From a virus (lineage: Duplodnaviria; Caudoviricetes): a stretch of DNA of 64,000 nt. Below the pieces are notes generated by a model. It was not told the DNA's origin, searched no databases, and saw nothing but the letters and a program-made list of their open reading frames with translations. Both the position numbers and the translations under genes were made by a program. This document shows positions 6,087 through 27,568 of this stretch, piece after piece. Position 1 is the first letter of the stretch; each line of letters opens with the position of its first letter. The stretch lies in IMG/VR virus record IMGVR_UViG_3300037400_004242. One strand, given 5' to 3'.

Positions 6087-6156
6087 GGTTATGTATTTTT
6101 TAGGGAATTTTTAATAAATTCCCTTTTTATTTATGTTTAAAAGAAGGTTCTAGAAT

Positions 6157-6954: not shown

Positions 6955-6965
6955 TAAAAAGAAGA

Positions 6966-6995
6966 TTGACAAGCATTTTTGTATTGATGTATAAT
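6966..6995 (+). promoter_or_regulatory. sigma70/sigmaA-type promoter
   Basis: TTGACA-18 nt-TATAAT upstream of the helicase gene. Confidence 0.8.
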
Positions 6996-7035
6996 ATAGA
7001 TAAGAGAATCAACGGAGATAAAAGGAGATATAAAA

Positions 7036-8727
7036 ATGCAAAGCAACATCAAAATGGAAGATTGCTTTCCATATTCAAAGGCTAGACCAGCACAAGAAGA
7101 TATTTTAAAGTCATTAGACAAAATTTATTCATATGATGATAAATATCGTTATATTGTAATTGAAGCTGGTACAGGAATTGGAAAATCTGCAATTGCTAAG
7201 TCAATTTCAAAGAAAGAAAAGACTTGCTATCTTTTGACAGCAACAAAACAGTTGCAAGACCAATATATTCATGATTTTGGGAATATGGGGGCAAGTGCTG
7301 TCAAAGGTTCTGTAAATTACGAATGTGCAGTTGATGATACGCTTGATTGTTCCAATGGAGCGTGTAAACTTTCCTTGGATGGTATGCGTTCACGTTGCTA
7401 TGCAGATAAGGCTTGTCCATATCAAAACGCAAAGCAAAAAGCGGATGCATCAGAAATGTTTGTTACATCTTATGCATATTTTCTTCGTGTTAGTCGAGGA
7501 AATAATACATCATTCAAATCTAGGAATGTTATTATTGTTGACGAATGTCATATGCTAGAAGACCAGCTTATTAATTGCGCTGGTTTTACTTTGAATCCTG
7601 AAAAAATGAATCATAGGTATCAAATTCATCATGGAATGGATTTCAAAACAATGGTGCTATATAAGCATATGCCAAATCCTGATGATGAACAGCAAATGAT
7701 TCAATGGATTTTCTTAGTTAAAAAATTAATTGCAAAACGCATGGAAATTTTTCAAAAATCTATATTCGCAGCTCGTTATGGTGACAGAAGTCAAATGACT
7801 GCGGATGAACTAAGTGATGTAGAAGATTTGGACATCAAAGATACATCACAAAAACTTGAAGAATTAAAGCGTTTATATGAAAAAATTATTAAATTTTTAA
7901 ATGAAGAAGATAAAAGTAATTGGGTAATGTCTGTAAAAGATAAACAGATTTCTGTAAAACCAATTAATGTAGATGGTTTGTTTAAACAACTAATTGATAA
8001 ATTTGCAATCCATAAAGTTGTTTTTATGTCTGCAACGATTCTTGATAAAGTTGGATTTTGTAATGATATGGGAATTGAAGCAGATAAAACTTGTTTTGTT
8101 ACTAGAGACGGTGTTTTCTCTGCGAAACGTTCACCGATTGTATATGACCCTGTAGGTTCTATGAGTTACAAAAACATTAATTTCACAATGCCATATGTAA
8201 TTGATGAAATTAAACGTATTATGGAACTGTATCCGAACGAAAAAGGAATTATTCATACAGCTACATATAATATTGCGCAACAAATTACAGAAGCTATTAA
8301 AAGTGATAGATTTGTAGTAAGAGAGCATGATGAATCAAATGAAGATTTGTTTCAATATCATGCGCAATCTGATAAACCTACAATTTTAGTTAGTCCATCG
8401 CTGATGGCAGGTGTGGATTTACATGATGATTTAAGTAGATTTCAGATTGTAGTAAAACTTCCTTATATTTCTCTTGCAGATGAAAGAGTAAAACGTAAAA
8501 TGCAAAAGAATCAAAAATGGTATACATGCAAGATGTTGCGTAATTTAGTTCAGGAATGTGGTAGAAGTACAAGAAACGAAAAAGATTGGTCAGTTACTTA
8601 TATTTTAGATAATGCTTTTGAAAAAACAGTTTATTTTAATAAAAAAATGCTGTCACCACATTTTTTGAATCGTATTGTGAATGTTAATAATTTTAAGGTT
8701 CAAGAGTATCGTAATTTGGTGAAATAA
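7036..8727 (+). CDS. DinG/XPD-family SF2 helicase with Fe-S cluster
   Basis: Q motif RPAQ, Walker A AGTGIGKS, four Cys, DECH, SAT, GVD, QECGRSTR. Confidence 0.9.
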   Translation: MQSNIKMEDCFPYSKARPAQEDILKSLDKIYSYDDKYRYIVIEAGTGIGKSAIAKSISKKEKTCYLLTATKQLQDQYIHDFGNMGASAVKGSVNYECAVDDTLDCSNGACKLSLDGMRSRCYADKACPYQNAKQKADASEMFVTSYAYFLRVSRGNNTSFKSRNVIIVDECHMLEDQLINCAGFTLNPEKMNHRYQIHHGMDFKTMVLYKHMPNPDDEQQMIQWIFLVKKLIAKRMEIFQKSIFAARYGDRSQMTADELSDVEDLDIKDTSQKLEELKRLYEKIIKFLNEEDKSNWVMSVKDKQISVKPINVDGLFKQLIDKFAIHKVVFMSATILDKVGFCNDMGIEADKTCFVTRDGVFSAKRSPIVYDPVGSMSYKNINFTMPYVIDEIKRIMELYPNEKGIIHTATYNIAQQITEAIKSDRFVVREHDESNEDLFQYHAQSDKPTILVSPSLMAGVDLHDDLSRFQIVVKLPYISLADERVKRKMQKNQKWYTCKMLRNLVQECGRSTRNEKDWSVTYILDNAFEKTVYFNKKMLSPHFLNRIVNVNNFKVQEYRNLVK

Positions 8728-11329: not shown

Positions 11330-12637
11330 TTGAAACTTAGTTCAAATACAAAGAAGAAAACTATTTCATTTTACTCATATCATTTAAATCATGAGAAATA
11401 TGAACAGATTGAAAATTTAGCAAAACAAATTCAAGCATATCAAAATTTCATTTCTGAGATTTACTACAACACTTATTTTCAGAAACAAAAGATTTCTTGT
11501 GGTAAATTCATCACAGAAATGAAAATATATCGTGATAAGGAATTTTCCTCTTCATTTTTTCAACAGATATGTAAACAAGTATATGAAAAATATGAAAAGA
11601 AAAAACCTCCAAAACAGCAAGTGGTTTTCAAGAAATTATCCTTTGTTGGTATCAATCTAATGACAAAACCTTTTATTGAAGAAAGCAACAACAAATATAC
11701 AAACGGAATTATCAATTTTAATATACCTAAACAAGGAGTAATTTGTATTCCATTTAGATATTCAAAAAAGTATCATGGTGATTTGTCAGATATTACTTAT
11801 TCCATGACAGGTGCAAACAAATCTCAATTTCAAAAACTGTATACTTGTACATTGTTAGGTAAAGATAAACTAAAAATTACTATTGTCGAGGATGATAACA
11901 GAACATATACTACATCAATCAATCACATCGAAGGTATAGATGTAAATGTAAAACATAACCTTTTACAATGTTCTGATGGATTTTCTGTAGATTATGATAG
12001 AAAATTTGTTACTAAAATTATTAAACAAAGAAAAAAGTATGATAGAATTGTATCTACCAAAATGAAAAGAAACATTGACCATACAATGACTGAAAAACAA
12101 TATCATTTAAGTAAGAAAAATTCACGAAGAAGTATTTCTATGGTGGAACAATGTTTGGTAAAATTATTTAAGCATTGTAATAAAAATGGTATTGACCATT
12201 TAGTTTTTGAAGATTTAGGTAAGTTTACAGGTAGACTAAAAATTACCAACAAAGAATTTGATGTTAACTATAAACGACTAATGTACGCAGTTAAACTTGT
12301 AGATATTAAAAACATTGCAGAACGAATTGGAAAGAAATATGGAATCACAATATCTTTAACCAATCCTGAATATACAAGTCAAGAATGCAGTTGTTGTCAT
12401 CATATTTCTAAAAAGAATAGGCAAACGCAAGAATTGTTTAAATGTGAAAATTGTGGATTTGAATTAAATGCAGACTTAAATGCATCCATCAATATAAAAA
12501 ACAGGATTCTCTCAAACGTTTTGAGAGAATCCTGTCATCAGGAAATTGAACCAAATAAATTCATTCCAATTTACAAGAACTACGAAGAATTTAAAACAGC
12601 ATACATAGAATTAATTAAACAAAATACCGTATCTTGA
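11330..12637 (+). CDS. tnpB: TnpB RNA-guided nuclease (IS200/IS605/IS607 family)
   Basis: RuvC-I GIDVN, RuvC-II VFEDL, Zn ribbon TSQECSCC..FKCENCG, RuvC-III NADLNASINI; catalytic D/E/D intact. Confidence 0.92.
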   Translation: MKLSSNTKKKTISFYSYHLNHEKYEQIENLAKQIQAYQNFISEIYYNTYFQKQKISCGKFITEMKIYRDKEFSSSFFQQICKQVYEKYEKKKPPKQQVVFKKLSFVGINLMTKPFIEESNNKYTNGIINFNIPKQGVICIPFRYSKKYHGDLSDITYSMTGANKSQFQKLYTCTLLGKDKLKITIVEDDNRTYTTSINHIEGIDVNVKHNLLQCSDGFSVDYDRKFVTKIIKQRKKYDRIVSTKMKRNIDHTMTEKQYHLSKKNSRRSISMVEQCLVKLFKHCNKNGIDHLVFEDLGKFTGRLKITNKEFDVNYKRLMYAVKLVDIKNIAERIGKKYGITISLTNPEYTSQECSCCHHISKKNRQTQELFKCENCGFELNADLNASINIKNRILSNVLRESCHQEIEPNKFIPIYKNYEEFKTAYIELIKQNTVS

Positions 12638-13934: not shown

Positions 13935-16643
13935 ATGTTAAATAAAGATATAACATTTTCATTAGATAGTTACGATAAGAAAAAATTCAAGCATGAAGTA
14001 TATGACCACAAGGATGTTTTCTATAGTAGAGAATATATTTATAATTTTAAATTTACAGTAAATATAGATAAAAATGAAATGCCAATTAATCATTTAATTA
14101 TTTATCGTAATGGTGAACCATATAACAATTGTAAGATTATACAAGTTGGGAATAAATCTTATGAGGTTAAAGATGATGTATGGATTCGTTATGGAAACAC
14201 ATGTTATGGTGTAGATGTCGTTCTTGAAGGTGGAAAAACATATCATAATTATTTCTATTTGAAAATTTTACAATCATATCAGCCAAATGATATTCGTTTT
14301 ATAAGTTTTGCAACGTATGGATTACATGAAAATTATTCTATGTTGGATGTAATTGCAAACATTCAGACAAAATATCAAATTGATAGAGTTTTATTATATG
14401 AACATATTTGTCCATTGACAGAGATAGATGAAAAAAGTCGTATATCTAAAATAAGTGAAATGAATGAAAGATATGATTCCAAAGAAATTAAATGGAATTA
14501 TTTGGGAAAAATGGATTTAATAAATCATCAATATCGTTTTCGTTATATGTTGTTTGATACGTCATTAACTGAGAATCGTACAGTATTATATAAGGCTGTA
14601 GTCGTAACAACAAATGAAGTTCGTAGAAGTGCAATTATGTCTACCATTATTAAACCTAATACAATGTCTGTTAATATATTTACATATATGAATACAGAAA
14701 CAAAAGAAAGATACGATATATATGGTGGATGTGTAGGACGTATTGATGCAAAAATTGATGAATACGACAATCCTGAATATAATGGCAAGATTTTTCAACT
14801 TTTAATAGATAAAAGAGACGATGAACAAAATTATTTAAAGTTGCTTGTCGGCGATGATTATAAATTTGAAGCAGATAATTATCATGTTGAATATAAAAGA
14901 AAGAAATTTAATCGTGTACAAACAAATCGTGACCCTAATATTTTTGAAATTTATGGTGATGGATTGGCTACAAAAGTTATTAATGAGGAAAGAGATTTAT
15001 ATCGTAGAGATAATTGTAGATTTTTAGTAACTTTATATTGCGGTGAAGATACTTTTGTTTCATTTAAAATTACTCCATTAAATGATAATAATTTGGCTGT
15101 TAACACGAATAAGACAGAAAATAATATTGTAAAATATTCTTATAATGGTGAATCCAAGATTATGGATAAACAATATTTGGATAAGACTGTAGATGTAAAT
15201 GCAATTCAAGGATATTATACATATAATAGAAAAACAGAAAATCTAATTTTTACAAATATTGATACAAAGGAACAACATATTACAATTATTCCTGATAAGC
15301 CAAAAGAATTATTGTTTCAGGAATTTGATTACATTACATATAACGATAAATATTTTTTCTTTGTCAACTTAGATAATAAAGGAATCCATATTACACGTTA
15401 TGATGGCGTTAATATTGATAAAATTGAATATTTTACAGAGATTATTAAGAGTTCATTAGATTGGATAAAGTCTCAGCAAATATTAAGTTTTGATAAAAAT
15501 AATAATTTAAATTTGAAATTTATATCTTCTAATGGCAGTAATTTTTTAAAGAAAATTGTTGTAGAAAATAATGATTTATCAGTTATTGATTATAGTGATA
15601 TGTTAGTAAATGTATTTAATGATATTCGTAAGCAGATGTTAAATTATGTTGATAATTTAAATTCTGTGACCGTTGGAAAAGTCGAATATATTATTAAAGC
15701 ATCAAATGTTTATGATACATTAGAGCATAAATTTGAGGATATGGGATATACGGATTTTAATTTGAAATTTACGACGCAATATTTTACATATCAAATCAAA
15801 TTCCCAATAGATGTTAAATTTTTAAACAAGACAACAAATGTTTATGTTCGTTTTCAAACGTCTATGACTGTTACTTGTAGAGAAGATGTTATTTTTTATG
15901 AGACGAATTATAGCTTAGGAAATCCAAGATTCGATATTGATATTGATAGTATTAATTTAACATATCATTATACAGATAATGGGAAAAATTTAATTCCTCA
16001 AGTTGGGTATGAAAAATTAAATCAAAAATATTTCTTGAAATTTAGTCAACCTGTAAACACATATACAAAAGAAGATTATGCAATTTTTAAACGTTGCGAT
16101 ATATATAATGGTGGAGCTAGTCTTTATAAGATAAATCCCGAAGATGTATATGGAAATGGGACAAAAGAAAAAACATTTAGGTATTCAGATTTATGTAGAC
16201 TACGTATTTTTATGCTAAATTATAAAGAGTACATGATTATGCGTTTTATGGGTGATAAATGCATGATGACAGTTGTTAATGTAGAATTGAAAGAGCAAAT
16301 ATCACAAGAAACTATTACAACAGATATGTATTTCGATAGTTTGTTCTATTTTACGAAAGAACAGCTTGTATCATTAGATGATTTGTTAAGTAGTGCATAT
16401 TTATATGATTCTGTAAAACGAAAAATGTATATTTGTGCATTGAGTGATTGTTATGTATTAGCTGTTGGTGGAACATATGATACATCATTTCATAATATGG
16501 AGAAATCGACTAGTTTAAGTGGTATTCCGTTAGATAATATGAAAACATATTTGTCTGAATATGAATTTAGTTATCCATTAAACATTAAAAATCGTAATCA
16601 TTATTTAAATGATATAGTCTTTAGTGAAGGGGTATATTCATGA
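13935..16643 (+). CDS. Large beta-rich hypothetical protein (possible structural/accessory tail protein)
   Basis: 902-aa ORF, SD gaaagga; no motif recognised. Confidence 0.6.
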   Translation: MLNKDITFSLDSYDKKKFKHEVYDHKDVFYSREYIYNFKFTVNIDKNEMPINHLIIYRNGEPYNNCKIIQVGNKSYEVKDDVWIRYGNTCYGVDVVLEGGKTYHNYFYLKILQSYQPNDIRFISFATYGLHENYSMLDVIANIQTKYQIDRVLLYEHICPLTEIDEKSRISKISEMNERYDSKEIKWNYLGKMDLINHQYRFRYMLFDTSLTENRTVLYKAVVVTTNEVRRSAIMSTIIKPNTMSVNIFTYMNTETKERYDIYGGCVGRIDAKIDEYDNPEYNGKIFQLLIDKRDDEQNYLKLLVGDDYKFEADNYHVEYKRKKFNRVQTNRDPNIFEIYGDGLATKVINEERDLYRRDNCRFLVTLYCGEDTFVSFKITPLNDNNLAVNTNKTENNIVKYSYNGESKIMDKQYLDKTVDVNAIQGYYTYNRKTENLIFTNIDTKEQHITIIPDKPKELLFQEFDYITYNDKYFFFVNLDNKGIHITRYDGVNIDKIEYFTEIIKSSLDWIKSQQILSFDKNNNLNLKFISSNGSNFLKKIVVENNDLSVIDYSDMLVNVFNDIRKQMLNYVDNLNSVTVGKVEYIIKASNVYDTLEHKFEDMGYTDFNLKFTTQYFTYQIKFPIDVKFLNKTTNVYVRFQTSMTVTCREDVIFYETNYSLGNPRFDIDIDSINLTYHYTDNGKNLIPQVGYEKLNQKYFLKFSQPVNTYTKEDYAIFKRCDIYNGGASLYKINPEDVYGNGTKEKTFRYSDLCRLRIFMLNYKEYMIMRFMGDKCMMTVVNVELKEQISQETITTDMYFDSLFYFTKEQLVSLDDLLSSAYLYDSVKRKMYICALSDCYVLAVGGTYDTSFHNMEKSTSLSGIPLDNMKTYLSEYEFSYPLNIKNRNHYLNDIVFSEGVYS

Positions 16644-17692
16644 GCCATGTTTTACAAATTCAAATGACAAATCAATGTAATTTAAAATGTGAATATTGTT
16701 ATATTCATCAAAATAATGATAAAATGTCGTTTGAAATGTTAAAACAACAAATTAAATATGTAAAACAATTATCAAACAGAATAGACGATGATTTTGATGG
16801 AAAATATGATGTTACATATTTTGGTGGGGAGCCGTTAATTGAATATCAAAATATATTAAAATTTGATGAATATTTAAAACAATCATTAAATGTGCAACAT
16901 TCTTTCATTCAAACAAATGGTATTTTGTTAGATAAAGAAAAAATTAAACAATTAAGAAAAAAGAATATTTATATTGGAATTAGTTGTGATGGTTGTAATG
17001 ATAAGAATCATATATATATTGAAAAAATTTTTCAAAATAAATGGTTGCCTGTAGAAGCAAAAATGATGATAAATAAGTATAACGTTTTTGACTTAATGAA
17101 AAATGTTATATATTTTTATCGTCAAGCGATGAAAGTTAATTGTGGAAATTTATATATAGATGTTTCTTTTGTAAAGGACAATACATGGGATAAACATTCT
17201 ATTATAGAATTAAGACAACAATTAAAAAATTTGTATGATTTTATGATGATGAATTATAGAGATTATCATCGTTGGATTGATATTGGATTTGTTAATAGAA
17301 TTTGCGCAAATATTTTGAACAAAAAACGAAATTATATTTGTTTTGCAGGAGTGAATGGATATAATTTAACTCCGGATGGAATTATTTATCCATGTGCTAG
17401 ATTTTATACAAATCATAAATATCCATTGTTTGATTCAAATAGTTATAAATTTTATGATAAAAATATAGATATAATAAAGCATTGGAATCGGACAAAAAAT
17501 GATAAATGTATGAATTGTGTATTGAATCAATTTTGTAATCAAGGATGCTTATATTCTCAAATTAATAACAATGGAATTATTGATATGTATTGTGATGTAT
17601 TAAAGTCATGCTATCATATGGTAACAACTTTGTATAAAACGATGAAAAATGAATATAATGTGAATATATTAAAGAAAGTTGGTAAGATTTAA
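16640..17692 (+). CDS. Radical SAM/SPASM-domain protein
   Basis: CNLKCEYC, FGGEP, QTNG; CFAG..GIIYPC..CMNC..FCNQGC..YC. Confidence 0.9.
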   Translation: MSHVLQIQMTNQCNLKCEYCYIHQNNDKMSFEMLKQQIKYVKQLSNRIDDDFDGKYDVTYFGGEPLIEYQNILKFDEYLKQSLNVQHSFIQTNGILLDKEKIKQLRKKNIYIGISCDGCNDKNHIYIEKIFQNKWLPVEAKMMINKYNVFDLMKNVIYFYRQAMKVNCGNLYIDVSFVKDNTWDKHSIIELRQQLKNLYDFMMMNYRDYHRWIDIGFVNRICANILNKKRNYICFAGVNGYNLTPDGIIYPCARFYTNHKYPLFDSNSYKFYDKNIDIIKHWNRTKNDKCMNCVLNQFCNQGCLYSQINNNGIIDMYCDVLKSCYHMVTTLYKTMKNEYNVNILKKVGKI

Positions 17693-18757
17693 ATGGAAAA
17701 ACCACCTATTAGTGTTTCAATAAATATGGGAAGTGCTTGTAACTTTCGCTGTAAATATTGTTTTGAGGTAAAGAATGGTGCAGTTAATGATTCTAAAAGA
17801 CTTCAACAAAAAGTGAAAGAACGAGTTATTGATGTTATTAAATTATTGACTGAAACAAATAAAGTTCGTATTGAATTTTGGGGTGGTGAGCCGACAGTAT
17901 ATTTTGATGACATTTATGAAATTATTGAAGCAACGAAAGCATATGAAGAAGTAACCTATTTTATGTATACAAATGGTTCTTTGGTTGAAAAATATAGTAA
18001 AGAATTGCTTCAAATAAAAAATGATGTTGGGCATCGTTTTCAAGTACAAGTTTCTTATGACTATCATGATTTAAAAAATAATCAACGCATTCAATTGAAT
18101 AAGACAGTTGAAGAAACTGAAAAAATGGTATTAGATGCGATTCATTTTTTTGATGATAATGATTTTTTCTTCGGAACAAAAACAACTTGTACAATGCATG
18201 ATTTAGAAGAGAATTTATTTCATCAATATATGAATTTTGAAAATTTAAATAAAACATTAAAACATAAAGTAAATTTTAATCCAACACCTGATACATTAGG
18301 TGTTGGAAATGTTAATTATAATAAAATAGAAAAACAATTTATTCAATTGTTAAAATATTTTGTTAAAAATAAAAAGTTTGGGAAAACAGGATTCATGTGG
18401 TTTGATATGCCATCTAATGCAGATTGTACAGGTGGAATACATTCGTTTCAAATAGATGTTGACGGCAGAGTTACATATTGCCATGGATGTTTATATAGTA
18501 AGAAAGATTTGTTTTACACTTCTGTATTTGATGATAATTTTCTTCATAAAGTAGATTATAATTATCTTGCAGTATATAGAAAATACAAGAAAAATAGTCA
18601 ATGTTCAGATTGCAATTCACAATTCTGTTTCAGATGTAACGCAATTAATAGTGATGGAAACATAGAAGATTGGGATAAATCAAATATTCCTGATGTTTGT
18701 AAATTATATAATAAAATTTCAGATTATATCCGCGCCTATTACAAAATAACTCATTAA
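17693..18757 (+). CDS. Radical SAM/SPASM-domain protein
   Basis: CNFRCKYC, WGGEP, YTNG; CTGG..YCHGC..CSDC..FCFRC..VC. Confidence 0.9.
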   Translation: MEKPPISVSINMGSACNFRCKYCFEVKNGAVNDSKRLQQKVKERVIDVIKLLTETNKVRIEFWGGEPTVYFDDIYEIIEATKAYEEVTYFMYTNGSLVEKYSKELLQIKNDVGHRFQVQVSYDYHDLKNNQRIQLNKTVEETEKMVLDAIHFFDDNDFFFGTKTTCTMHDLEENLFHQYMNFENLNKTLKHKVNFNPTPDTLGVGNVNYNKIEKQFIQLLKYFVKNKKFGKTGFMWFDMPSNADCTGGIHSFQIDVDGRVTYCHGCLYSKKDLFYTSVFDDNFLHKVDYNYLAVYRKYKKNSQCSDCNSQFCFRCNAINSDGNIEDWDKSNIPDVCKLYNKISDYIRAYYKITH

Positions 18758-18819
18758 TTTTACGATGTATTTTATTTTTCTAATAGAATAGGTATTGAAA
18801 AATTTGGAGTTGATAATAT

Positions 18820-20397
18820 ATGGCGATATGTACGGACACAAAATATGTAGAGGGATTTTATCAAATTGTAGAACCTCCACAATTTTTAAAAGACATGTTT
18901 CCAATTTGTAGACCTTTTGGTGACCCCGGTGATGACAAAAGTTATGAATTCGGGAGTAGTTATTGGAGCGGGTTCGATTCTACTTCTCGTGATGAAGCAT
19001 CAAGTCGTGGATTAAGTAATCGTAAAGGTCGTTTAAAAGATTCTTTTAGTGTTACAGATAAAGTTACGAATAAAGATTGGAACTGTGCAATTGTAAAATT
19101 GAAACAAGAATTTGCTATTCGTTGCGGTTTTAAGCATAATTGGATTCCATTTGTAGAACAAACGGGAGATTTTGGATTATCCAATCATTTAGGATATTTC
19201 CGTGATGGTATTAAAGGCGGAAGTGATGGTGATAGTGACCCAACGCAAGGCGAAAAAACGGATATTGTATATCGTAGAGATATGCAAAAAATATACTTAG
19301 ATATTATTCGTTTGCTAGACTATGAAGTTCCAATGTATTCCGTAGAAGATGGAAGCAAAAATCCTCGTTTCCCAGAGTTTAGAGGTATTTTTTCTAATGA
19401 TTATGGTAAAGTTGGGGACTACAATTCTATTTTAAAAGAAATTGTTGATATTGATGATGCTGATAAATTTTTAAAACAAGGGAATAATGTGTTTTTACCT
19501 CCTGATAATAAAGCATCTGAGAAAAAATGGAAATATTTTCATTTAAATGATAATGTTATTGGCTATCCTGGTGAACCAGCTTCTTCTTGTGCAAAATATG
19601 AAGGAAAATTAGAGAGTTTTGGTGATAACTATCCACCTGGTGGTTCAATTAACATTGACCAGCTAAACGATTGGGAAAGTCGTTATACATTAGGTACTGA
19701 TGCATATGATTTTAAAAAAATGACCAAGAAACGTATTTTGCAATTCATTGGTGCGTCTCAACCTTGGTATCGTAAGTCCGATTCATTATTGGATTGGGAC
19801 GATGGTATTTTTATTGATTATTGGCAACCAAAAAGAGATACTGATGATTTCGCATACGCTCAAGAAATAGTTCCTAATACATATTATCCATATGGAAATA
19901 AGGATTATACAGAAGATGGTGGAGCAGGTGGAAAAGAACCAAAGCCATCAGCATTATATAAAGCTGTACAAGAATTTAGAAAGAAATTTATAAATCCTGC
20001 AAAAGAAACTACAGATAATGATTTATTAGTTTCTGCCAAAATTTCAAAAACAGCTACAGTTGATAGAGATTTATATGGTAATCCAATTACACAAACTGTA
20101 GAAGAAGATGCATCATTTTCAGTAGCATATGTTATGAGACATGCTTATACAGAGTTTCAAACGGTAGATAAATATGGCGATGATGGAAAACTAATTAGTA
20201 GAATGACAATCGGCGGTGATAAAATTATCGTTGATGCTAACTCTGTCGCAAATGTGTTTATGAAAACAATAAATAAAATTTCAGATATTTGCGTTTGTAA
20301 CTGCAATTATTGTTCTTGCTTTGGTAATGAAGTTACATGCTTATGCTATGTTGTTAAGGTAACAGGTTGGTGCTATTCATACATGTATGTATATTAA
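18820..20397 (+). CDS. 525-aa protein with C-terminal Cys cluster, putative rSAM substrate/virion protein
   Basis: Ends in CVCNCNYCSC..TCLC..WC; preceded by TATTTW-N5-TAGA at 18773..18787. Confidence 0.7.
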   Translation: MAICTDTKYVEGFYQIVEPPQFLKDMFPICRPFGDPGDDKSYEFGSSYWSGFDSTSRDEASSRGLSNRKGRLKDSFSVTDKVTNKDWNCAIVKLKQEFAIRCGFKHNWIPFVEQTGDFGLSNHLGYFRDGIKGGSDGDSDPTQGEKTDIVYRRDMQKIYLDIIRLLDYEVPMYSVEDGSKNPRFPEFRGIFSNDYGKVGDYNSILKEIVDIDDADKFLKQGNNVFLPPDNKASEKKWKYFHLNDNVIGYPGEPASSCAKYEGKLESFGDNYPPGGSINIDQLNDWESRYTLGTDAYDFKKMTKKRILQFIGASQPWYRKSDSLLDWDDGIFIDYWQPKRDTDDFAYAQEIVPNTYYPYGNKDYTEDGGAGGKEPKPSALYKAVQEFRKKFINPAKETTDNDLLVSAKISKTATVDRDLYGNPITQTVEEDASFSVAYVMRHAYTEFQTVDKYGDDGKLISRMTIGGDKIIVDANSVANVFMKTINKISDICVCNCNYCSCFGNEVTCLCYVVKVTGWCYSYMYVY

Positions 20398-20410
20398 TAC
20401 AGAAAGGAAT

Positions 20411-20674
20411 TTCAGTAACCCACGAATAAATTCGTGGGATTGTGGTAGAAATATCACAATCCTTTGCTGAATAGCCTAAGTCTTAACTGACTACGTTGTT
20501 ATCGTTATCACACCCTAGTGCGTATGCTTTAACGCTAGGCTCTGTAAAAGTTCTAAGAGGTAGGAACAGTCAACCAGACGTAGACCGATTACGGCAAGCG
20601 ATTATAACATTGGCTAAGAGTAACCAACTCAAGAATAAAGTTATTTATAACTTTAGGAAGGAGGTAGACTTGTT
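20411..20674 (+). ncRNA. IscB omegaRNA (HEARO-like) scaffold; the guide would be the upstream flank
   Basis: TCAGTAACCCACG start, tagcctaagtcttaactgactacgtt, ctag..ctaggctctg, aacattggctaag, immediately 5' of a PLMP ORF. Confidence 0.85.
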
Positions 20675-21013
20675 ATGTTAGTCTACGTATTAAATAAAAA
20701 TGAAAAACCTTTAATGCCTTGCAGTCCCAGAAAAGCTAGGATACTTCTTAAAGAAGGTAAGGCAAAAGTAATTAGACGAGAACCTTTTACTATACAATTA
20801 CTCTATGGTTCTAGTGGATACAAACAGAAAGTAAATCTCGGCGTAGATGCTGGCAGTAAACATATAGGTTTATCTGCGACTACCGAGAAGAAAGAACTTT
20901 TCGCCAGCGAAGTTAAATTAAGAACTGACATCGTAGATTTATTGTCTACGAGACTTCAGTATAGAAGAAGTAGAAGAAATAGAACTACTATAAGAAGGGG
21001 AGACTTAATATGA
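20675..21013 (+). pseudogene. iscB: Truncated IscB (PLMP + RuvC-I + bridge helix/RRXRR only)
   Basis: MLVYVLNKNEKPLMPC..ARILLKEGKA..PFTIQL..LGVDAGSKHIG..RRSRRNR; HNH and RuvC-II/III absent; open frame with SD ggaggt. Confidence 0.9.
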
Positions 21014-21324
21014 CAATGTATGCAATTATTATAACTTTAGACGCTGATACATTATCTAAAGTATACACAGGAAATAGTATAGCAAGTGCTTATACAGATA
21101 TTGAGGAAATACTAAGAAGTTATGGATTTTCTCATAAACAAGGAAGTGTATATTTTGGAGATGAGGGAATAGACGCTGTTCATACAGTTATTGCAGTACA
21201 GAAACTATCAAAAAAATATGATTGGTTTGTACCAAGCGTACAAGATGTGCGAATGATTAGAATAGAGGAAGATAGTGATTTGATGGTGGCGATTAGATTT
21301 GCATATTTGGAATCCAATAAGTGA
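21010..21324 (+). CDS. vapD: VapD family (Cas2-like) endoribonuclease
   Basis: MYAI..LD..L..Y..AY.DI..L..GF..QGSVYF..WF..SV.DVRMIRIEE.SDL; ATGA overlap with the iscB fragment. Confidence 0.88.
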   Translation: MTMYAIIITLDADTLSKVYTGNSIASAYTDIEEILRSYGFSHKQGSVYFGDEGIDAVHTVIAVQKLSKKYDWFVPSVQDVRMIRIEEDSDLMVAIRFAYLESNK

Positions 21325-21393
21325 ACAATATATGTATTCTAAGCCTGTAAAAGTATTAGTAAAAAAATATAAAATGGTTAATAGAAAGGAGGA

Positions 21394-21437
21394 GCGTTGT
21401 TTCCTCCCATGGTTAAAACCATGGGAGGAAACAACGC
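21394..21437. repeat. Perfect 21-bp inverted repeat at the IscB element end
   Basis: gcgttgtttcctcccatggtt-aa-aaccatgggaggaaacaacgc. Confidence 0.95.
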
Positions 21438-21448
21438 AAAATATATGA

Positions 21449-21715
21449 ATGGAGAATAAAACTTTAACAGAAGAAGAAAAAAAAGATTTTATGGAAAAAA
21501 TGGCGAATATAATTAATTATATGGAAGCCACAAGAAATATTATTTATCCTATGGATAAGATATTGTATCAAACAATTAATAATATTTTATCAATGTATAT
21601 GATTAGTTTAGGAAGAAAAGTTGGTATGGAATATGAAGAACTAGAAAAAAAGTATTCCAAAGATGAATCTGAAGTTGATGATATTATTGATAAAATTAGT
21701 AAGGAGACAGAATAA
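21449..21715 (+). CDS. Small helical hypothetical protein of the rSAM module
   Basis: 88-aa ORF coupled to the next gene. Confidence 0.65.
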   Translation: MENKTLTEEEKKDFMEKMANIINYMEATRNIIYPMDKILYQTINNILSMYMISLGRKVGMEYEELEKKYSKDESEVDDIIDKISKETE

Positions 21716-22353
21716 TGGGAAAACAAATGTTATTTTTTTGCGGAATAATAACAATTAATAATGTTAATTTTTTGGTAAATCCTTTTACAAAAATTGAGGG
21801 TGAACCTGTTCTTCTGAGCAGAGATGCATATGTTCAGCTAACTGCTGAAGCATATGATTTCGTCACAAATGTTTTAGATTTATCACATAGAGAACCACAA
21901 TGCAAAGTTTATATTGAATGTTCTCCAACAGAAAAAGAAATTTTTGACAGAGACGATTTGAAAATTAATGAAGAGTTAAATAATGAGTCTCCTGAAGATA
22001 AACTTGATGCATATAAAGAAAAATGTATTCGTTTGATGAATGAAATGATTTCAAATCAACTTATGATTTCTAATTTTGAATTATATCATTTCTTTAAATT
22101 GAATCATTATCTTGAATCTAAAGGTTTCTTTATTACAGATGAAAATCGTGAAGAAAAGTATTTGGAAGTTATTAATAGTGGTGATGCAGAAGCACTTGAG
22201 AAACTTTCTGAATATTTGGATTCATTAGATGAATTTAATGCGATTGATGATATTTATATGCGTTATAAGGAATTTAAAGACAAGGTTAAGGTTGCTAAGA
22301 ATGAACAAGAAATTAAAGATGCATACATCGCCATGTCAAAAGCAACATTTTAA
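21715..22353 (+). CDS. Hypothetical protein with ITDENREEKYLE motif (recalled from phage rSAM loci)
   Basis: GFFITDENREEKYLEVINSGD motif; the family association is from memory and not searched. Confidence 0.6.
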   Translation: MGKQMLFFCGIITINNVNFLVNPFTKIEGEPVLLSRDAYVQLTAEAYDFVTNVLDLSHREPQCKVYIECSPTEKEIFDRDDLKINEELNNESPEDKLDAYKEKCIRLMNEMISNQLMISNFELYHFFKLNHYLESKGFFITDENREEKYLEVINSGDAEALEKLSEYLDSLDEFNAIDDIYMRYKEFKDKVKVAKNEQEIKDAYIAMSKATF

Positions 22354-23149
22354 TATTGTTTATATGACTAATGAATCATATTTGTTTCAAACATATGTTT
22401 CTATTAGTTCATTGAAGATGAATAAACATCATAACATCAGTTATGATGTTTATTTGTTATGTATTGAAATGCAAGATATTGGAGATATAAAAAAATTAAA
22501 TGATGAGGATTTTTGTATTCATTCAATTTATATTGAACGTAATATTTATAGATATGATGCTAATGCAGGTGTTGTATATTATAAAATGATTTTACACGAA
22601 TTATTGGATGTGGATACAGTATTTCATATTGATTCAGATACAGTTGTTATTGATGATGTTTCAAGTATTTTTGATTATAATTTAACCGATTATTTTTGTG
22701 GTGGTGTAAAAGATAAAATTAAAGGATTGAAATACTTTAATGCAGGAAATGTGTTGTTAAATTTAAAAAAAATACGAGAAACATTATATGATAATGAATA
22801 TACAATGTATGATTATTTTTGGCAATTAGATAAAGAATTAAGAGATAAAAAAGGATTCCTTTGGGAACAAGATGTTTTTAATAAGGCTTTTGAAAATAAG
22901 ATTTTATATATTAATTATGGCTATAATTTTTTGGTGAATACTTATAGCCAATATAAGTTTAATGATTTAAGTAGAATTTATGGAGAAAAAGTAGATTATA
23001 AAAAAATTAAAATATTACATTTTGCAAGTCATCCAAAACCGTGGATAAAAACAAATTTATTTGGTGAAATTTGGAAAATGTATGCAGAAAATAAAGTAAA
23101 TAAAGAATTAGAACAGAAAATATTGAGGGTGGCGTGTCGTGAGTATTGA
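22229..23149 (+). CDS. Glycosyltransferase family 8 (true start probably 22319 or later)
   Basis: HIDSDTVV (DxD), YFNAG, WEQDVFN, ILHFASHPKPW. Confidence 0.9.
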   Translation: MNLMRLMIFICVIRNLKTRLRLLRMNKKLKMHTSPCQKQHFNIVYMTNESYLFQTYVSISSLKMNKHHNISYDVYLLCIEMQDIGDIKKLNDEDFCIHSIYIERNIYRYDANAGVVYYKMILHELLDVDTVFHIDSDTVVIDDVSSIFDYNLTDYFCGGVKDKIKGLKYFNAGNVLLNLKKIRETLYDNEYTMYDYFWQLDKELRDKKGFLWEQDVFNKAFENKILYINYGYNFLVNTYSQYKFNDLSRIYGEKVDYKKIKILHFASHPKPWIKTNLFGEIWKMYAENKVNKELEQKILRVACREY

Positions 23150-24293
23150 TAGAAAACAAGCATTATTAATGCAATTTATGTTAGGTTCAAATTTAAAAGT
23201 AAAAAAAAGAGATAAAGATAAAATATTAGTTACTTGTAATATAGCTACCCGTCAAGGACACCAATATTTATGGGGAGCAGAAAAATATTGTATGAAAATT
23301 TGTCATCAGTTGGCAAAAAAATATGAAGTACATTTGTTTCAACAAGCAGAAAATTTTTTAAATTGTAATGATATTATTGTGCATCCACATATTTATAATT
23401 TTTTTTCTCGTTCAAAATTATTAGAAGTTGCTTTTAAGGCTTCTATGGTACAACCAAGATGCATTTTATGTAATGCAGGAACAGGTTCACAAGCGTTATT
23501 TTGGACAATTGTAGCAAAAATTATTGATGTTCCAATTATTATGTTTTTACATAATGAACCAACTTTTATAAAAGATACAATTTCTCCTGAATGGGGTATG
23601 TATTATGTTCGTGGTCAAACAATTATGAAAGATAAAGATATGCTGTATGATTTCGTCTTAGATTATTGTGATGAATTAGCATTTTTATTACCGCAATATA
23701 TAGATAGTAAATATAAAGATAAAACTTATGTGTATCTTAATTGTATTGATATTCCTAACAATGTAGATGTTGAATCAGATAGAAAAAATTTGTTGTATGT
23801 TGGTAGAATTAATACCGATGTTAAACGTACACAAATATTGTTAGATTGGGTTAAAAATACAGAATATGCTTGTAAAGTATGTGGCTATAATTATCAAGAA
23901 GATGGGTATCTTGATATGAATCAATATCAAAAATATAAAAATATAAATTTTTTAGGATACCATAAAAATATGGATAACATTTATCGTGAATCTAACGTAT
24001 TAGTTATTCCATCTTTATATGAAGGACTTCCAACAGTTGCATTAGAAGCATTATCTTATGGTATACCAATTGTTGGATTTAAAGAATGTAAATCTATGAA
24101 TGATATTATTCAGGATGGATATAATGGATGGCTAGTAGATAATAACTTTTCAGATGTTATGGAAAAAGTAATGTCTATAAAAGATATGAGACAAATTCGT
24201 AAGAATTGCTTAAATGAATCGAAAAAATATGATATAAATAATATTATGAAAACAATTTTTAAATCAATAGAGGATGTTAAATGTGAAGATTAA
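23139..24293 (+). CDS. Glycosyltransferase family 4 (GT-B)
   Basis: WGAEK, LYVGRI..K, PSLYEGLPTVALEALSYGIPIV, GYNGWL. Confidence 0.9.
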   Translation: MSIDRKQALLMQFMLGSNLKVKKRDKDKILVTCNIATRQGHQYLWGAEKYCMKICHQLAKKYEVHLFQQAENFLNCNDIIVHPHIYNFFSRSKLLEVAFKASMVQPRCILCNAGTGSQALFWTIVAKIIDVPIIMFLHNEPTFIKDTISPEWGMYYVRGQTIMKDKDMLYDFVLDYCDELAFLLPQYIDSKYKDKTYVYLNCIDIPNNVDVESDRKNLLYVGRINTDVKRTQILLDWVKNTEYACKVCGYNYQEDGYLDMNQYQKYKNINFLGYHKNMDNIYRESNVLVIPSLYEGLPTVALEALSYGIPIVGFKECKSMNDIIQDGYNGWLVDNNFSDVMEKVMSIKDMRQIRKNCLNESKKYDINNIMKTIFKSIEDVKCED

Positions 24294-25206
24294 TTTAATT
24301 TACTATTTATATGAAGTGAATGGTGCATTTACTTCATTTGAAGATACATTTTATAATTTAAGCAAGTTTACAAATCATAATGTTAATTTCTTTATTTTAT
24401 ATGAAGATAAATATATGTTAGCACAATTTAAAAAATATCTTCCAAAAGGCTCAGGAATTTGCTTATTAGAATTACCAAAAACTCCAGATAAAGGAACGAA
24501 TTTATATAAACGTGTTGCAGTTAGGGAAGTATATCATACAATGGTATATAATATAAAAGGTGACATTAATATTATTAGTTCTGAAGTTATTCGATTACAA
24601 AAAGCAAATAGAATTAAACAGAGTGCAAGTCAAGAAATGTTGTTATATCCTGCATTTATATATAAAGAACAAGGATTAGATAAAACTTTTTACAATGATG
24701 AACAAGAATATATTAAAAATAATGATGTACTTGTAATATGTAATAAATTTAATACAAAGTATGTTAATAATTCATTTGTTTGGTATATGCAATTTTCAAA
24801 AGAAAGAATTGAACAATTAAAAAAACTTGTTTCTAATGAAAATGATGTTTTATGTGCTGAAGAATATTATAAAAATAAAATGAATTGTAAAAATATTGAA
24901 CCGTTTTCATATAAGAAATATGAATATTATAGATATGATAAAAAAAATGAAACAAATTGTTATACAGATGATGGAGCAAGATATTATGAAAATATTGGAA
25001 AATTAATGTTTGAATTTGTTTTACTGGGAAAAGAATCATCATATTCTCCAAGAAATAAACAATTTGATGATGGATTGACAGAATTCATGAATTATTTGGG
25101 ATACGATGATAATCAATTATATTGGTGGAATCATAAGGATATTTCTTATTTAGAAAAAAGATTGTTTATGAACAAAGAAAATAAATTGTTATCTTTATTT
25201 AAATAA
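24274..25206 (+). CDS. Hypothetical protein in the glycosylation operon
   Basis: Overlapping operon ORF; no clear motif. Confidence 0.65.
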   Translation: MLNVKINLIYYLYEVNGAFTSFEDTFYNLSKFTNHNVNFFILYEDKYMLAQFKKYLPKGSGICLLELPKTPDKGTNLYKRVAVREVYHTMVYNIKGDINIISSEVIRLQKANRIKQSASQEMLLYPAFIYKEQGLDKTFYNDEQEYIKNNDVLVICNKFNTKYVNNSFVWYMQFSKERIEQLKKLVSNENDVLCAEEYYKNKMNCKNIEPFSYKKYEYYRYDKKNETNCYTDDGARYYENIGKLMFEFVLLGKESSYSPRNKQFDDGLTEFMNYLGYDDNQLYWWNHKDISYLEKRLFMNKENKLLSLFK

Positions 25207-25226
25207 AATTGGGAGAAGGTTCATCA

Positions 25227-26816
25227 ATGAAAATTCTTGGAATACAATGTTATCAAGATTATAATGTAACATATTTTGATACAGTTACAAAAGATTTGAA
25301 ATATACAGAACTTGAAAAATTATTGAAGAAAAAACATTTTTCTTTTCATTCTGATAAAATAGATTATATGCCTGAAATTGATAGAATTTACGATGATAAT
25401 TTAAGAAATAATTTATATAAATGTCAGCGTATTATTCATGAAGAATTAGGTGTAAATAGATTTGATGTTGTTTGTTGGAATTACAAAACTTTTAAAGATG
25501 GATATTTAAAACAAGAATCTTATGATTTTGTAAAAATGTTAGAGCGTTGTGATGTTTTGAAATTTCATCATCAAGAGAATCATGTATTACCTACGATTTT
25601 TGAATATGATTTAAAAGATGCATTATGTTTTTCAATTGATGGAAAAGGTGACGGGAACCATGCTTTTTATCATTGGAAAGATAATAAATTAAATTTGTTG
25701 TTTCAGGAAAAAGCATTTTCTTATGGAATGTTTTATGAAGTCTTAGCATGTTATTTCTTAGATAAGAAGAATCAGTATGAACAAGGGTTAGAAGGAAAAT
25801 ATATGGCTTATGCAGGTTTGTCTAATAAATTCCTTGAACTTGAAAATATTGATGCTTTTATGAATGAAGTAAAAAAGACAAATTGGAATATATGGGAAGA
25901 TAAGATTGAAGTAGAAAAATTTATTTATAATTATTTAGATAAAATGTCAGAAAAATATGATAAATATGATTTGGCATATACTATGCAAAAATTATGGATA
26001 AATAATGTTATGGCTGATATAGCAAAGTATCGTCATGAAAGTGAAAATTTTGTAATTTCAGGTGGATGTGCATTAAATTGTATGTTAAATTATGAGATTA
26101 TAAAAACTGGATGGTTTAAAAATGTGTATTATACACCTATTGTTTCAGATGTTGGACAATCATATGGAGCAGTATTAAATTATTTATTGCATTATTCTCC
26201 TGAAAATTTAAAATTTGTAGATTCTGATGATTTTTCTATTACAGAAGGTATTCGAGATAAAAAATATTTTGATTCTATTTCTTCTAATTTTCATACATAT
26301 CAAATAGAAGAAATTTCATCAATATTAGAAAACGATGGAATTGTTGGAATATGTCGTGGAAATATAGAAATGGGACCTCGTGCATTAGGGAATCGTAGTA
26401 TATTGGCTTCACCTTTTCATAAAGAAATGCATGATAAATTAAATAAAATAAAAGGAAGAGAATGGTATCGTCCGTATGGAGTTATTGTTCCAAGAGAATA
26501 TTTATCACGTTATTTCGATATTGATGTTGATGTAAAATATATGAATATGTTAGCATATCCAAAAGACAAAGATGTACTTTTGGGAGCGCAACATACAGAT
26601 GGAACAATTCGTATTCAAACTGTTTCAGATGAAGATAATCGTTGGTTACATGATTTATTATTAACTTTTGGACAAAAAACAGGAGTTCCAATTTTAATTA
26701 ATACATCATTTAATGATGGTGGTATGCCAATTTTTAATTATATGAAAGACATGTATCGTATGTATAATGAAAAATTAAATGCTCTCGTTTATGAGAATAA
26801 GATGGTGTCAAAATGA
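25227..26816 (+). CDS. Carbamoyltransferase (NodU/CmcH/TobZ family)
   Basis: HHQENH, SIDGKGD, EGKYMAYA, SGGCALNC, EMGPRALGNRSIL, KGREWYRPY, LINTSFN. Confidence 0.92.
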   Translation: MKILGIQCYQDYNVTYFDTVTKDLKYTELEKLLKKKHFSFHSDKIDYMPEIDRIYDDNLRNNLYKCQRIIHEELGVNRFDVVCWNYKTFKDGYLKQESYDFVKMLERCDVLKFHHQENHVLPTIFEYDLKDALCFSIDGKGDGNHAFYHWKDNKLNLLFQEKAFSYGMFYEVLACYFLDKKNQYEQGLEGKYMAYAGLSNKFLELENIDAFMNEVKKTNWNIWEDKIEVEKFIYNYLDKMSEKYDKYDLAYTMQKLWINNVMADIAKYRHESENFVISGGCALNCMLNYEIIKTGWFKNVYYTPIVSDVGQSYGAVLNYLLHYSPENLKFVDSDDFSITEGIRDKKYFDSISSNFHTYQIEEISSILENDGIVGICRGNIEMGPRALGNRSILASPFHKEMHDKLNKIKGREWYRPYGVIVPREYLSRYFDIDVDVKYMNMLAYPKDKDVLLGAQHTDGTIRIQTVSDEDNRWLHDLLLTFGQKTGVPILINTSFNDGGMPIFNYMKDMYRMYNEKLNALVYENKMVSK

Positions 26817-27568
26817 AACATATACCGTTGATTGAATATCATTTGGTGAATCATTGCAATTTAAATTGTAAAGGCTGTGCTCATTTTGCACCATTAGCAA
26901 AGCCTTGGTTTGCAAATATAAATAAATTTGAAAAAGATTTAAAACAGTTGTCTTCTTTAGTGATTATTGATAAATTAACTTTATTCGGTGGAGAACCATT
27001 ATTGCATGATAACATTAATGATTTTTTAATAATTGCTAGAAAAATTCTTCCGAATACAGATATTAGTATTTTAACAAATGGGATTTTATTGTTGAAAAAA
27101 TTAGGTTCGCTTGCAAAAGTAATGAAAGAAAATAATATATATATGGATATTACTTGTTATCCTATTCCTGTTAAATATGAATTAGGGCTAAAAATGTTGA
27201 AAACGCTTAAAGTTCCATATCGTATATATAATGATATGGAACGTGTAAAAACATTAAGACATCATTTTCTTTCTCATAAAAAGGAAAAAAATAAATGGGA
27301 ATGTTTGATGATAAATTCAAATTCAGTTCAATTAAGAAATGGGAAATTATATATATGTCCTTTACAAGCATATATTGATATTTTTAATGAGTATTTTCAT
27401 GAGAATTTTAAAGTAGACAATAATGATATTTTAGATATTTATCATTGTACGGATGATGATATATTAAATATGTATCATAGGAAAAATGATTTTTGTGAAT
27501 ATTGTAGAGAACCAATAGAAGGGAATAAATATTCTACATCTAAAAAGGAGAAATCAGAATGGATGTAA
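26813..27568 (+). CDS. Short radical SAM protein
   Basis: HCNLNCKGCAHFAP, FGGEPLLH, LTNG, C-terminal FCEYC. Confidence 0.88.
   Translation: MKHIPLIEYHLVNHCNLNCKGCAHFAPLAKPWFANINKFEKDLKQLSSLVIIDKLTLFGGEPLLHDNINDFLIIARKILPNTDISILTNGILLLKKLGSLAKVMKENNIYMDITCYPIPVKYELGLKMLKTLKVPYRIYNDMERVKTLRHHFLSHKKEKNKWECLMINSNSVQLRNGKLYICPLQAYIDIFNEYFHENFKVDNNDILDIYHCTDDDILNMYHRKNDFCEYCREPIEGNKYSTSKKEKSEWM

Follow-up and report, generated by a model that had tools for sequence, protein, structure and literature searches.

We analysed a stretch of 64,000 nucleotides from a tailed phage (Caudoviricetes; IMG/VR record IMGVR_UViG_3300037400_004242), which we call the window. It derives from a myovirus-like phage with a GC content of about 29%, and contains a tail sheath gene (38431-40599) as well as very large tape-measure-like genes with an SLT domain. 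The subject of this report is a module in which two radical S-adenosylmethionine (SAM) enzymes of the SPASM type, rSAM1 and rSAM2, are encoded next to a protein of 525 amino acids (aa) that ends in a Cys-rich tail and may be their substrate. The module and its immediate surroundings comprise the following features:

13935-16643, + strand: 902-aa protein of no assigned family, no Pfam or PHROG match
16640-17692, + strand: rSAM1, 350 aa, radical SAM/SPASM enzyme (PF04055), PapB/CteB-like, no RiPP recognition element (RRE; RiPP, a peptide made by the ribosome and modified after translation)
17693-18757, + strand: rSAM2, 354 aa, radical SAM/SPASM enzyme (PF04055), PapB/CteB-like, distant from rSAM1
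18773-18787, + strand: promoter-like motif TATTTT-N5-TAGA, 33 nt 5' of the ATG of the Cys-tail gene
18820-20397, + strand: Cys-tailed protein, 525 aa, putative substrate, no Pfam or NCBIfam match
20230-20286, + strand: amphipathic helix, about residues 471-489, candidate leader-like recognition element (from predicted structure and alignment)
20290-20394, + strand: Cys-rich tail, residues 491-525, C-V-C-N-C-N-Y-C-S-C ... C-x-C-Y-V-V-K ... G-W-C-Y-S-Y-x-Y
20411-21444: inserted element with a HEARO/IscB fragment and a VapD gene
21449-21715, + strand: p88, conserved 88-aa follower, kept after the Cys gene in relatives
21715-22353, + strand: p212, conserved 212-aa partner with the motif KGFFITDENREEKYLEVINSGD, kept after the Cys gene in relatives

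The stop codon of the 902-aa gene overlaps the start codon of rSAM1 (ATGA), and the two genes are therefore probably translationally coupled. The rSAM2 gene starts at the base right after the end of rSAM1, and a spacer of 62 nt holding TATTTTTCTAATAGA (18773-18787) and a GGAG separates it from the Cys-tail gene.

An earlier note on this DNA had described a radical SAM/SPASM pair followed by a 525-aa Cys-tailed protein. The open reading frames (ORFs) are indeed in place, and both enzymes match PF04055 (rSAM1: 7.9e-15, 55.8 bits; rSAM2: 4.9e-13, 50.0 bits; cut-off: 29.5), which places them in the radical SAM superfamily. The motif CX3CX2C, which binds the SAM-cleaving [4Fe-4S] cluster inside a partial TIM barrel, appears as CNLKCEYC at residues 13-20 of rSAM1 and as CNFRCKYC at residues 16-23 of rSAM2. 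The SPASM subfamily (TIGR04085/PF13186) is defined by the pattern C-x9-17-G-x4-C ... C-x2-C-x5-C-x3-C ... C, with seven or eight Cys residues and two auxiliary clusters. Read from the sequence, rSAM1 contains C..GIIYPC, then CMNCVLNQFCNQGC and a later Cys, and rSAM2 contains C..GRVTYC, then CSDCNSQFCFRC (a C-x2-C-x4-C-x2-C variant) and a later Cys. By this pattern both enzymes are SPASM proteins; a stand-alone SPASM hidden Markov model is not among the matches listed for either of them. Among 19 homologs of rSAM2, Cys residues 16, 20, 23, 245, 263, 266, 304, 307, 312, 315 and 336 are invariant or near-invariant, eight of them in the C-terminal part. These eleven residues are enough for three clusters.

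The curated model that best matches both enzymes is that of PapB (NF047865). It aligns with residues 5-312 of rSAM1 (profile positions 5-325 of 330; 1.5e-31, 109.8 bits) and with residues 7-319 of rSAM2 (profile positions 4-320 of 330; 1.2e-18, 67.5 bits), yet neither enzyme reaches the equivalog cut-off of 340 bits, and they are not members of this family. The NCBIfam models for SCIFF, QhpD, DynA, YhhB and anSME follow, all far below their cut-offs. For the SCIFF maturase (TIGR03974), rSAM1 scores 66.9 bits against a cut-off of 425, and no SCIFF-like six-Cys precursor peptide is present. The closest solved structure of rSAM1 is CteB (5WGG, residues 99-424, 4.1e-12), which is also the best match in the PDB for the family profile of rSAM2 (residues 98-426, 1.1e-16). 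Since these alignments begin at residue 98 or 99 of CteB, both phage enzymes lack the RRE; they start 12-15 residues before CX3CX2C and leave no room for one. A predicted complex of rSAM2, tail residues 440-525, three [4Fe-4S] clusters and SAM scored 0.01 against a mark of 0.32, a result that speaks neither for nor against binding.

The similarity between rSAM1 and rSAM2 is limited to about 110-157 N-terminal residues with 27-28% identity, and the two are not recent paralogs. A first module elsewhere in the window (2760-5687) contains another pair of SPASM enzymes (2760-4963), which are paralogs with 42% identity from end to end. In the earlier note the enzymes of the second module were called unrelated-looking. 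This holds insofar as the two pairs are only 25-34% identical over partial lengths, but all four enzymes share PapB as their best NCBIfam model over the whole length.

The putative substrate ends in an eight-Cys motif, CVCNCNYCSC...C.C...WC. The tail quoted earlier as ICVCNCNYCSCFGNEVTCLC..WC is found in the protein, and so is the helix segment IVDANSVANVFMKTINKI, directly before the Cys cluster. This protein family is rare: when 1.84 billion representative proteins were searched with a profile, ten relatives were returned. The 11 aligned homologs are 28-34% identical overall, and the tail is near-invariant, with the consensus C[VI]CNCNYCSC[FY]G.E..C.CYVVK..GWCY.Y.Y. Invariant positions comprise C491, C493, N494, C495, N496, Y497, C498, S499 and C500, followed by G502, E504, C507, C509, V512, G516, W517, C518, Y519 and Y521. 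The N-terminal part also contains two conserved motifs, FPIC[RK]P[FY]G and RPxGNxDY, and a short form of 256 aa (P0011) retains both ends of the protein. Outside HNH endonucleases, the only Cys-dense stretches encoded in the window are found in this protein and in the corresponding protein of the first module.

Searches for relatives of known type gave little. The 525-aa protein has no family in Pfam or NCBIfam, and family, tblastn, fold and PDB searches found no homology to known structural families; a PDB sequence search with the Cys-tail profile had no match. Among GenBank phages, neither blastn with the whole locus nor tblastn with the full 525-aa protein gave a match, and tblastn with the tail alone produced marginal matches at E values of about 2-5. 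AlphaFold2, run on the 11-sequence alignment, returned a model with a mean predicted local distance difference test score (pLDDT) of 46.8. The tail is unmodelled and predicted to be disordered, and a helix is predicted right before it, at residues 473-489, with a pLDDT of about 70-77. A fold search with this poor model (best PDB Z score 5.8, VIA wide; no BFVD match with E < 0.001) is uninformative as to whether the fold is novel.

Two observations on the tail stand apart from these searches. The reading of the tail as a target of anSME-type formylglycine formation was rejected, as the tail contains no C/S-x-P/A-x-R sulfatase motif. On a 545-bp scaffold (L014, positions 162-422), an IS200-like transposase N-terminus (GIYHIMLRGINRQ...) stands in frame with the last 26 codons of the window's Cys tail. 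This fusion reflects either a chimeric assembly or, in a variant phage, a second mobile-element insertion into the sequence that encodes the tail.

The module is conserved in related phage contigs. In every relative with enough flanking sequence (L001-L003, L005, L007 and L015-L018) the genes come in the order 97-aa protein, ~900-aa protein, rSAM1, rSAM2, Cys-tailed protein, ~88-aa protein and ~211-aa protein. An insert sometimes sits between rSAM2 and the Cys-tail gene, with the order otherwise kept. In the short-form loci L005, L017 and L018, about 1.3-2.2 kb are inserted at this place (L005: 1186-3407; L017: about 5083-6353; L018: about 6086-7365) and the linkage persists; the L005 insert carries a pair of DNA methyltransferase-like genes, one of them N6_N4_Mtase. 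Relatives of the 902-aa gene are always the immediate 5' neighbor of rSAM1 (orthologs in L012 with 25% identity, 6e-80, and in L015-L018 with 42-50% identity); the protein has no sequence match in Pfam, PHROG or the PDB. The p88 gene lies directly 3' of the Cys gene in L001-L007 and L015-L019. Its product is 33% identical in L005 and shows a weak MazG-like match below cut-off. The p212 gene follows the Cys gene in L012, L013 and L015-L019, and its product is 48% identical in L005. AlphaFold2 models p212 with a pLDDT of 89.3 as a small N-terminal beta/alpha domain followed by a long helical bundle, for which a fold comparison found nothing beyond generic helical hairpins or coiled coils (Z at most 8.7) and Foldseek had no match. 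The co-occurrence of the ITDENREEKYLE protein with radical SAM enzymes and Cys-tail proteins, proposed earlier as a check, is seen in the related loci.

In all relatives the region 3' of p212 is occupied by a cluster of genes for glycosyltransferases (GT) and associated proteins (GT8, GT4, a 310-aa protein, a carbamoyltransferase, two small radical SAM proteins and GT2; 22229-29300 in the window). The two small radical SAM proteins, of 251 and 273 aa, are 32% identical. This sugar-type cluster may represent a glycan pathway whose target is the same virion protein or a different one.

Because the loci L001-L003, L005, L007 and L015-L018 were found by way of the tail and belong to one lineage, they show conservation of the module rather than independent association of its parts. 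A less biased test of co-occurrence is a search with rSAM2 alone, which is free of ascertainment through the tail. With this search we found CxC[ND]CNYC proteins encoded near rSAM2-type enzymes in two distant contigs, L012 and L013, and in the cultured phages CP220 and IBB_35 of Campylobacter group II, which bears out the proposal of a conserved unit made up of the enzymes and the Cys-tailed protein. Orthologs of rSAM2 were identified in L005 (58%), L012 (38%), L013 (30%) and CP220 (gp136), and the rSAM2 type is the enzyme that always accompanies the Cys-motif protein. Among cultured phages, Campylobacter group II alone has full-length relatives of rSAM2, which are 25% identical across 97% of the length. 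Matches in Ralstonia and Achromobacter phages cover the N-terminal radical SAM core only and were set aside as generic.

Each of these phages presents its own version of the module. L012, a phage contig of 500 kb, encodes an rSAM1-like enzyme, a 230-aa protein with 42 Cys residues and an rSAM2-like enzyme, in that order, and has a p212-like gene two ORFs downstream, past a weakly p88-like gene of 118 aa. On the 20-kb contig L013, an rSAM2-like enzyme is followed by a 157-aa Cys-tail protein, which ends in ...AVCICDSHCSCNPADCGCNGEC...YYYYYYP, and a p212-like gene comes next. This enzyme is the one rSAM2-type protein beside the Cys gene; a further, unrelated radical SAM-like ORF lies about 5 kb downstream, and a tail-fiber-like C-terminal fragment lies upstream. 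In CP220, the 534-aa protein CPT_0180/gp140, encoded four genes upstream of gp136, has a run of seven C[DN]CNYCT heptads in tandem along with other, scattered CxC[ND] sites. Pairwise BLASTP aligned the helix and Cys cluster of the window protein with the helix and first heptads of gp140 (35% over 81 aa, E 3e-6); the rSAM2 search combined with this comparison was the sole route to the Campylobacter phages. The reciprocal best match of rSAM1 is CP220 gp023 (6.8e-30), and gp023, gp136 and gp015 are orthologs of rSAM1, rSAM2 and p212, with gp023 and gp136 matching these counterparts well above the other radical SAM proteins of the window. The p212 homolog gp015, which carries the motif GYFITDDNREEMYIKIL, adjoins baseplate-hub and tail-assembly genes, and the region of gp015 and gp023 also adjoins a sugar/radical SAM cluster; a QueE-like radical SAM protein and a sugar dehydrogenase follow gp015.

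An alignment of the window, CP220, L012 and L013 proteins showed that the unit common to all forms consists of a hydrophobic helix and, right after it, C-[VIL]-C-[ND]-C-N-[YH]-C-[STA]-C. The N-terminal bodies of these proteins are unrelated between lineages, and the gene orders differ too. From the loci in L012, L013, CP220 and the window, the recurring set is therefore an rSAM2-type enzyme, a helix with a Cys/Asn unit, and a p212-type protein, and this association is real and reaches distant phages. The broader idea of a general system of two radical SAM enzymes and a Cys-tailed protein survives in part: the unit recurs, but the number of radical SAM enzymes varies from one in L013 and two in the window to three in the P0033 locus, and the components in CP220 are scattered.

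Other small proteins in these phages also contain Cys motifs. The p88-like protein of L012 (8165-8521) has an N-terminal CDCGGSCGDNCKC motif of its own, and CP220 gp020 (L011: 8907-9284) ends in CDHESCGCK. Both are possible additional Cys substrates in certain lineages; p88 of the window has no Cys.

The motif TATTTW-N5-TAGA, which had been noticed 5' of the Cys-tail gene, is present at 18773-18787 and precedes tail operons as well. It occurs at 13 sites in the window, compared with 1.8 expected, and none of 100 shuffled sequences reached this number. Ten of the sites lie 13-90 nt 5' of start codons on the + strand, several of them just past terminator-like hairpins. The motif also precedes the first genes of the tail-sheath operon (37682) and of the tail-chaperone/tape-measure operon (45619), and fits a putative promoter class that includes structural genes. 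Since the Cys-tail gene has its own motif of this tail-operon type, the protein is probably made late and in quantity, with the timing of this motif class being putative.

A link to the virion comes from phage IBB_35. Its gene 3-9 (1605 bp, 60,318 Da, "no homologs") is one of 38 virion proteins identified by electrospray tandem mass spectrometry, with a sequence coverage of 2.6% (PMC3322345, Tables S1/S2). By position and by computed mass (60,317 Da), we matched this gene to AEF56812, the CDCNYCT-repeat protein. By analogy, this entry raises the likelihood that the 525-aa protein is also part of the particle, while stopping short of establishing its place there.

The architecture, family affinities, motif conservation and co-occurrence described above are consistent with the following model. 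As RRE-less enzymes of the thioether-forming PapB/CteB type, rSAM1 and rSAM2 would act on the Cys-rich tail of the 525-aa protein, with the amphipathic helix before the Cys cluster as the docking element. Each enzyme would cleave SAM reductively, abstract hydrogen from an acceptor residue and join a Cys sulfur to the carbon of that residue. The likely acceptors would be the invariant Asn494 and Asn496, which show C-x-x-N spacing, and Glu504; each link would cost 2 Da. The product would be a compact, covalently stapled C-terminal knot on a protein that is probably virion-associated, and p212, perhaps together with p88, would serve as a conserved accessory (adaptor, chaperone or binding partner). 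After a Cys, position +3 is the one most consistently occupied by Asn or Asp, namely for 27 of the 35 Cys residues in CP220 gp140, 27 of 40 in L012, 4 of 7 in L013 and 3 of 8 in the window protein, a spacing that parallels the C-X-X-Q/D motif of CrpA and CrpB discussed below. With moderate confidence, we infer that the tail of this protein, which is probably expressed late and probably associated with the virion, receives thioether cross-links from the two enzymes.

Several observations weigh against this model. No modification has been observed anywhere in the Cys-tailed family, and metals are likewise bound by C-x-C-rich motifs, for instance in clusters of the metallothionein type. The scores of 109.8 and 67.5 bits are far under the PapB cut-off of 340, and because of this distance the chemistry of the two enzymes could differ from that of PapB. 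Most loci represent one phage lineage with long-range synteny, so that adjacency is partly inherited, and only about three lineages are independent. In CP220 the components are scattered, with gp140 and gp136 2.2 kb apart and gp015 and gp023 about 25 kb away. The exact TATTTW-N5-TAGA motif is absent 5' of the orthologous genes in an exact-motif scan; versions with one mismatch were read by eye at the same place in L001, L003 and L005. The identification of the IBB_35 protein in virions depends on 2.6% coverage, and this protein shares just the unit of ~80 aa with the window protein. Since the GT/carbamoyltransferase/radical SAM cluster adjoins the module in all relatives, part of the neighborhood may serve another pathway.

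Some of these points would also suit a tail that simply binds Zn, Cu or an Fe-S cluster, with both SPASM enzymes acting elsewhere, for example on the 902-aa protein or on a sugar or nucleotide intermediate of the downstream GT/carbamoyltransferase cluster. C-x-C-rich motifs are typical of metallothionein-like clusters, rSAM1 is translationally coupled to the 902-aa gene and not to the Cys gene, the GT8/GT4/carbamoyltransferase/radical SAM/GT2 cluster is conserved 3' in all relatives, and the enzymes score far under any equivalog cut-off. We nevertheless consider this explanation rather unlikely. The rSAM2 type tracks the Cys motif in L013 and CP220, where the 902-aa protein is absent; the Cys gene of L012 sits between both radical SAM genes; and the regular C-x-x-[ND] spacing is expected of thioether acceptors, not of metal ligands. 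Furthermore, SPASM enzymes with full-length similarity to PapB, CteB, QhpD and anSME act on peptides or proteins (PMC13692751).

Alternatively, at least one of the enzymes may perform other radical chemistry on the tail, such as C-C or ether cross-linking of Tyr or Trp (cyclophanes of the darobactin/dynobactin type) or Cys oxidation. The cyclophane-forming maturases DynA (6.5e-20, full length), YhhB, AmcB and FxsB all match rSAM1, the end of the tail is conserved and rich in aromatic residues (GWCYSYxY; YYYYYY in L013), and the presence of two non-paralogous enzymes suggests two chemistries. We regard this option as unlikely, given that the best model (PapB) and the best structure (CteB) both represent thioether-forming enzymes, and that the part of the motif common to all lineages consists of Cys and Asn, not of aromatic residues. 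A RiPP with a giant leader, in which the last ~35 residues are stapled and released as a small bioactive peptide and the body of 490 aa is the leader or carrier, seems very improbable. A leader-like helix, a C-terminal Cys core and adjacent SPASM maturases follow classical RiPP logic (PMC9413430), and conservation is much higher in the tail than in the body. But a RiPP cluster is expected to contain a short precursor and a protease or exporter: the candidate substrate measures 525 aa, or 256 aa in the short form, and family scans of the module and 12 related loci turned up no protease, ABC exporter or transporter. In addition, the N-terminal motifs are conserved too, the Cys region of the CP220 protein is internal and 250 aa long, and the IBB_35 protein is listed at about full size in the virion preparation.

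Among characterized systems, the closest to the proposed thioether-stapled tail are CrpC/CrpA, QhpD/QhpC and PapB. In the QhpD/QhpC system, a radical SAM/SPASM enzyme forms intramolecular thioethers between Cys and Asp/Glu, and the protein so modified remains in a larger assembly. The QhpD model (TIGR03906) matches rSAM1 over its full length (1.4e-18), yet with 66.8 bits against a cut-off of 453, and QhpC is a subunit of ~80 aa of quinohemoprotein amine dehydrogenase, an unrelated biological context. CrpC (TIGR04463; Dieter et al. 2026), a SPASM enzyme from Methanococcus voltae, was shown to install ranthionine links on the protein CrpA; CrpA and CrpB carry C-X-X-Q/D motifs, with the Cys residues C-terminal and preceded by a conserved non-Cys part (PMC13692751). 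The likeness lies in an adjacent SPASM enzyme and a large protein with a C-terminal Cys region, which in the window reads C-x-x-N/D. Unlike the window enzymes, CrpC has an N-terminal RRE; its cluster encodes one enzyme instead of two distant ones; CrpA has 17-residue repeats instead of CxCNCNYC; and the setting is archaeal and cellular instead of phage and probably virion. TIGR04463 is not among the 25 best NCBIfam matches of 54 for rSAM1 and of 41 for rSAM2.

PapB, the maturase of PapA (freyrasin), joins the sulfur of Cys to carbons of Asp or Glu and accepts Cys-acceptor spacings from 0 to 6 (PMC9413430). PapB and CteB, the maturase of CteA (SCIFF), provide the best profile (NF047865) and the best structure (5WGG), with the SPASM part included. 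Their substrates are peptides of ~50 aa compared with 525 aa here, the likely acceptors in the window protein include Asn, residues 1-97 of CteB, which hold the RRE, have no counterpart, and the window module has no protease or exporter. A precedent for a two-enzyme module is TrnC/TrnD of thuricin CD, where two adjacent, different radical SAM enzymes install thioether links as one complex (PMC12093266). This comparison is one of function, not of sequence orthology, and the thuricin links are sactionines on two small bacteriocin peptides. The likenesses to CrpC/CrpA, PapB and TrnC/TrnD are analogies. The Campylobacter group II phages (CP220 gp140, IBB_35 gene 3-9; PHROG 26958) share the helix and the C-x-C-[ND]-C-N-Y-C unit, have orthologs of rSAM1, rSAM2 and p212, and are low-GC myoviruses like the window phage, but their motif is expanded to seven heptads and internal, and the genes are dispersed over the genome. 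In the papers on these phages, a 21-bp repeat and "many radical SAM genes" are all that is noted, the latter with proposed roles in host metabolism (PMC2853527).

To date, QhpC and, since 2026, archaeal CrpA are the full-size proteins on which radical SAM thioether links have been demonstrated. Our literature search found no paper on radical SAM-modified phage virion proteins, an absence that is not proof. If the proposed thioether stapling of a particle protein is correct, it would be a new kind of post-translational chemistry in virions and would explain what some of the many "mysterious" radical SAM genes do in Campylobacter group II phages, where they have been attributed to host metabolism since 2010. 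Protein stapling could also benefit from a compact, RRE-less enzyme pair whose recognition and target cassette is short and portable. A bolder reading, which we regard as possible but doubtful, is that phages of at least two very different groups, rumen/gut jumbo phages and T4-like Campylobacter phages, employ dedicated RRE-less SPASM enzymes to turn a Cys/Asn-rich module of a virion protein into a knot held by thioether staples. Virus particles would then be covalently reinforced by enzymes in a manner that is new as a class and differs from disulfides and from isopeptide chainmail of the HK97 type, with the helix and CxC[ND]CNYC unit as a portable "staple-me" cassette and p212 as the conserved adaptor.

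The earlier note had also counted two small accessory ORFs after the Cys-tail gene. The ORFs next to this gene belong to a mobile-element insertion, and the conserved followers p88 and p212 lie beyond it. The insertion, an IscB-type element, begins 13 nt past the stop codon of the Cys gene and contains the following parts:

20411-20628: full-length HEARO/IscB omega RNA (102 bits, E 7e-21)
20675-21013: 112-aa N-terminal fragment of IscB (RRXRR, 5.8e-37), the stop of which overlaps the VapD-family gene
21010-21324: VapD-family gene (1e-14)
around 21388-21435: terminal hairpin of the element

All related loci are without this element. The empty site is seen in L014, where the stop codon of the Cys gene is immediately followed by the start of the 88-aa gene.

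The first radical SAM module (2760-5687) is flanked by genes for proteins of 392 aa (1577-2755) and 265 aa (6157-6954), in whose sequences we read, respectively, a C-terminal NUDIX-box-like motif and a helical motif of MazG/dimeric-dUTPase type; they hint at nucleotide-modifying functions nearby. At 11330-12637, in surroundings that are otherwise those of a phage, an ORF encodes a 435-aa TnpB/IS605 OrfB-like protein with a C-terminal zinc-finger-like CxxC..CxxC motif. Two HNH endonuclease genes in tandem (42282-45065; 440 and 486 aa, PHROG 374) stand between the tail-sheath operon and the tape-measure operon, and each encodes Cys-dense, zinc-finger-like CKCDCGN motifs.

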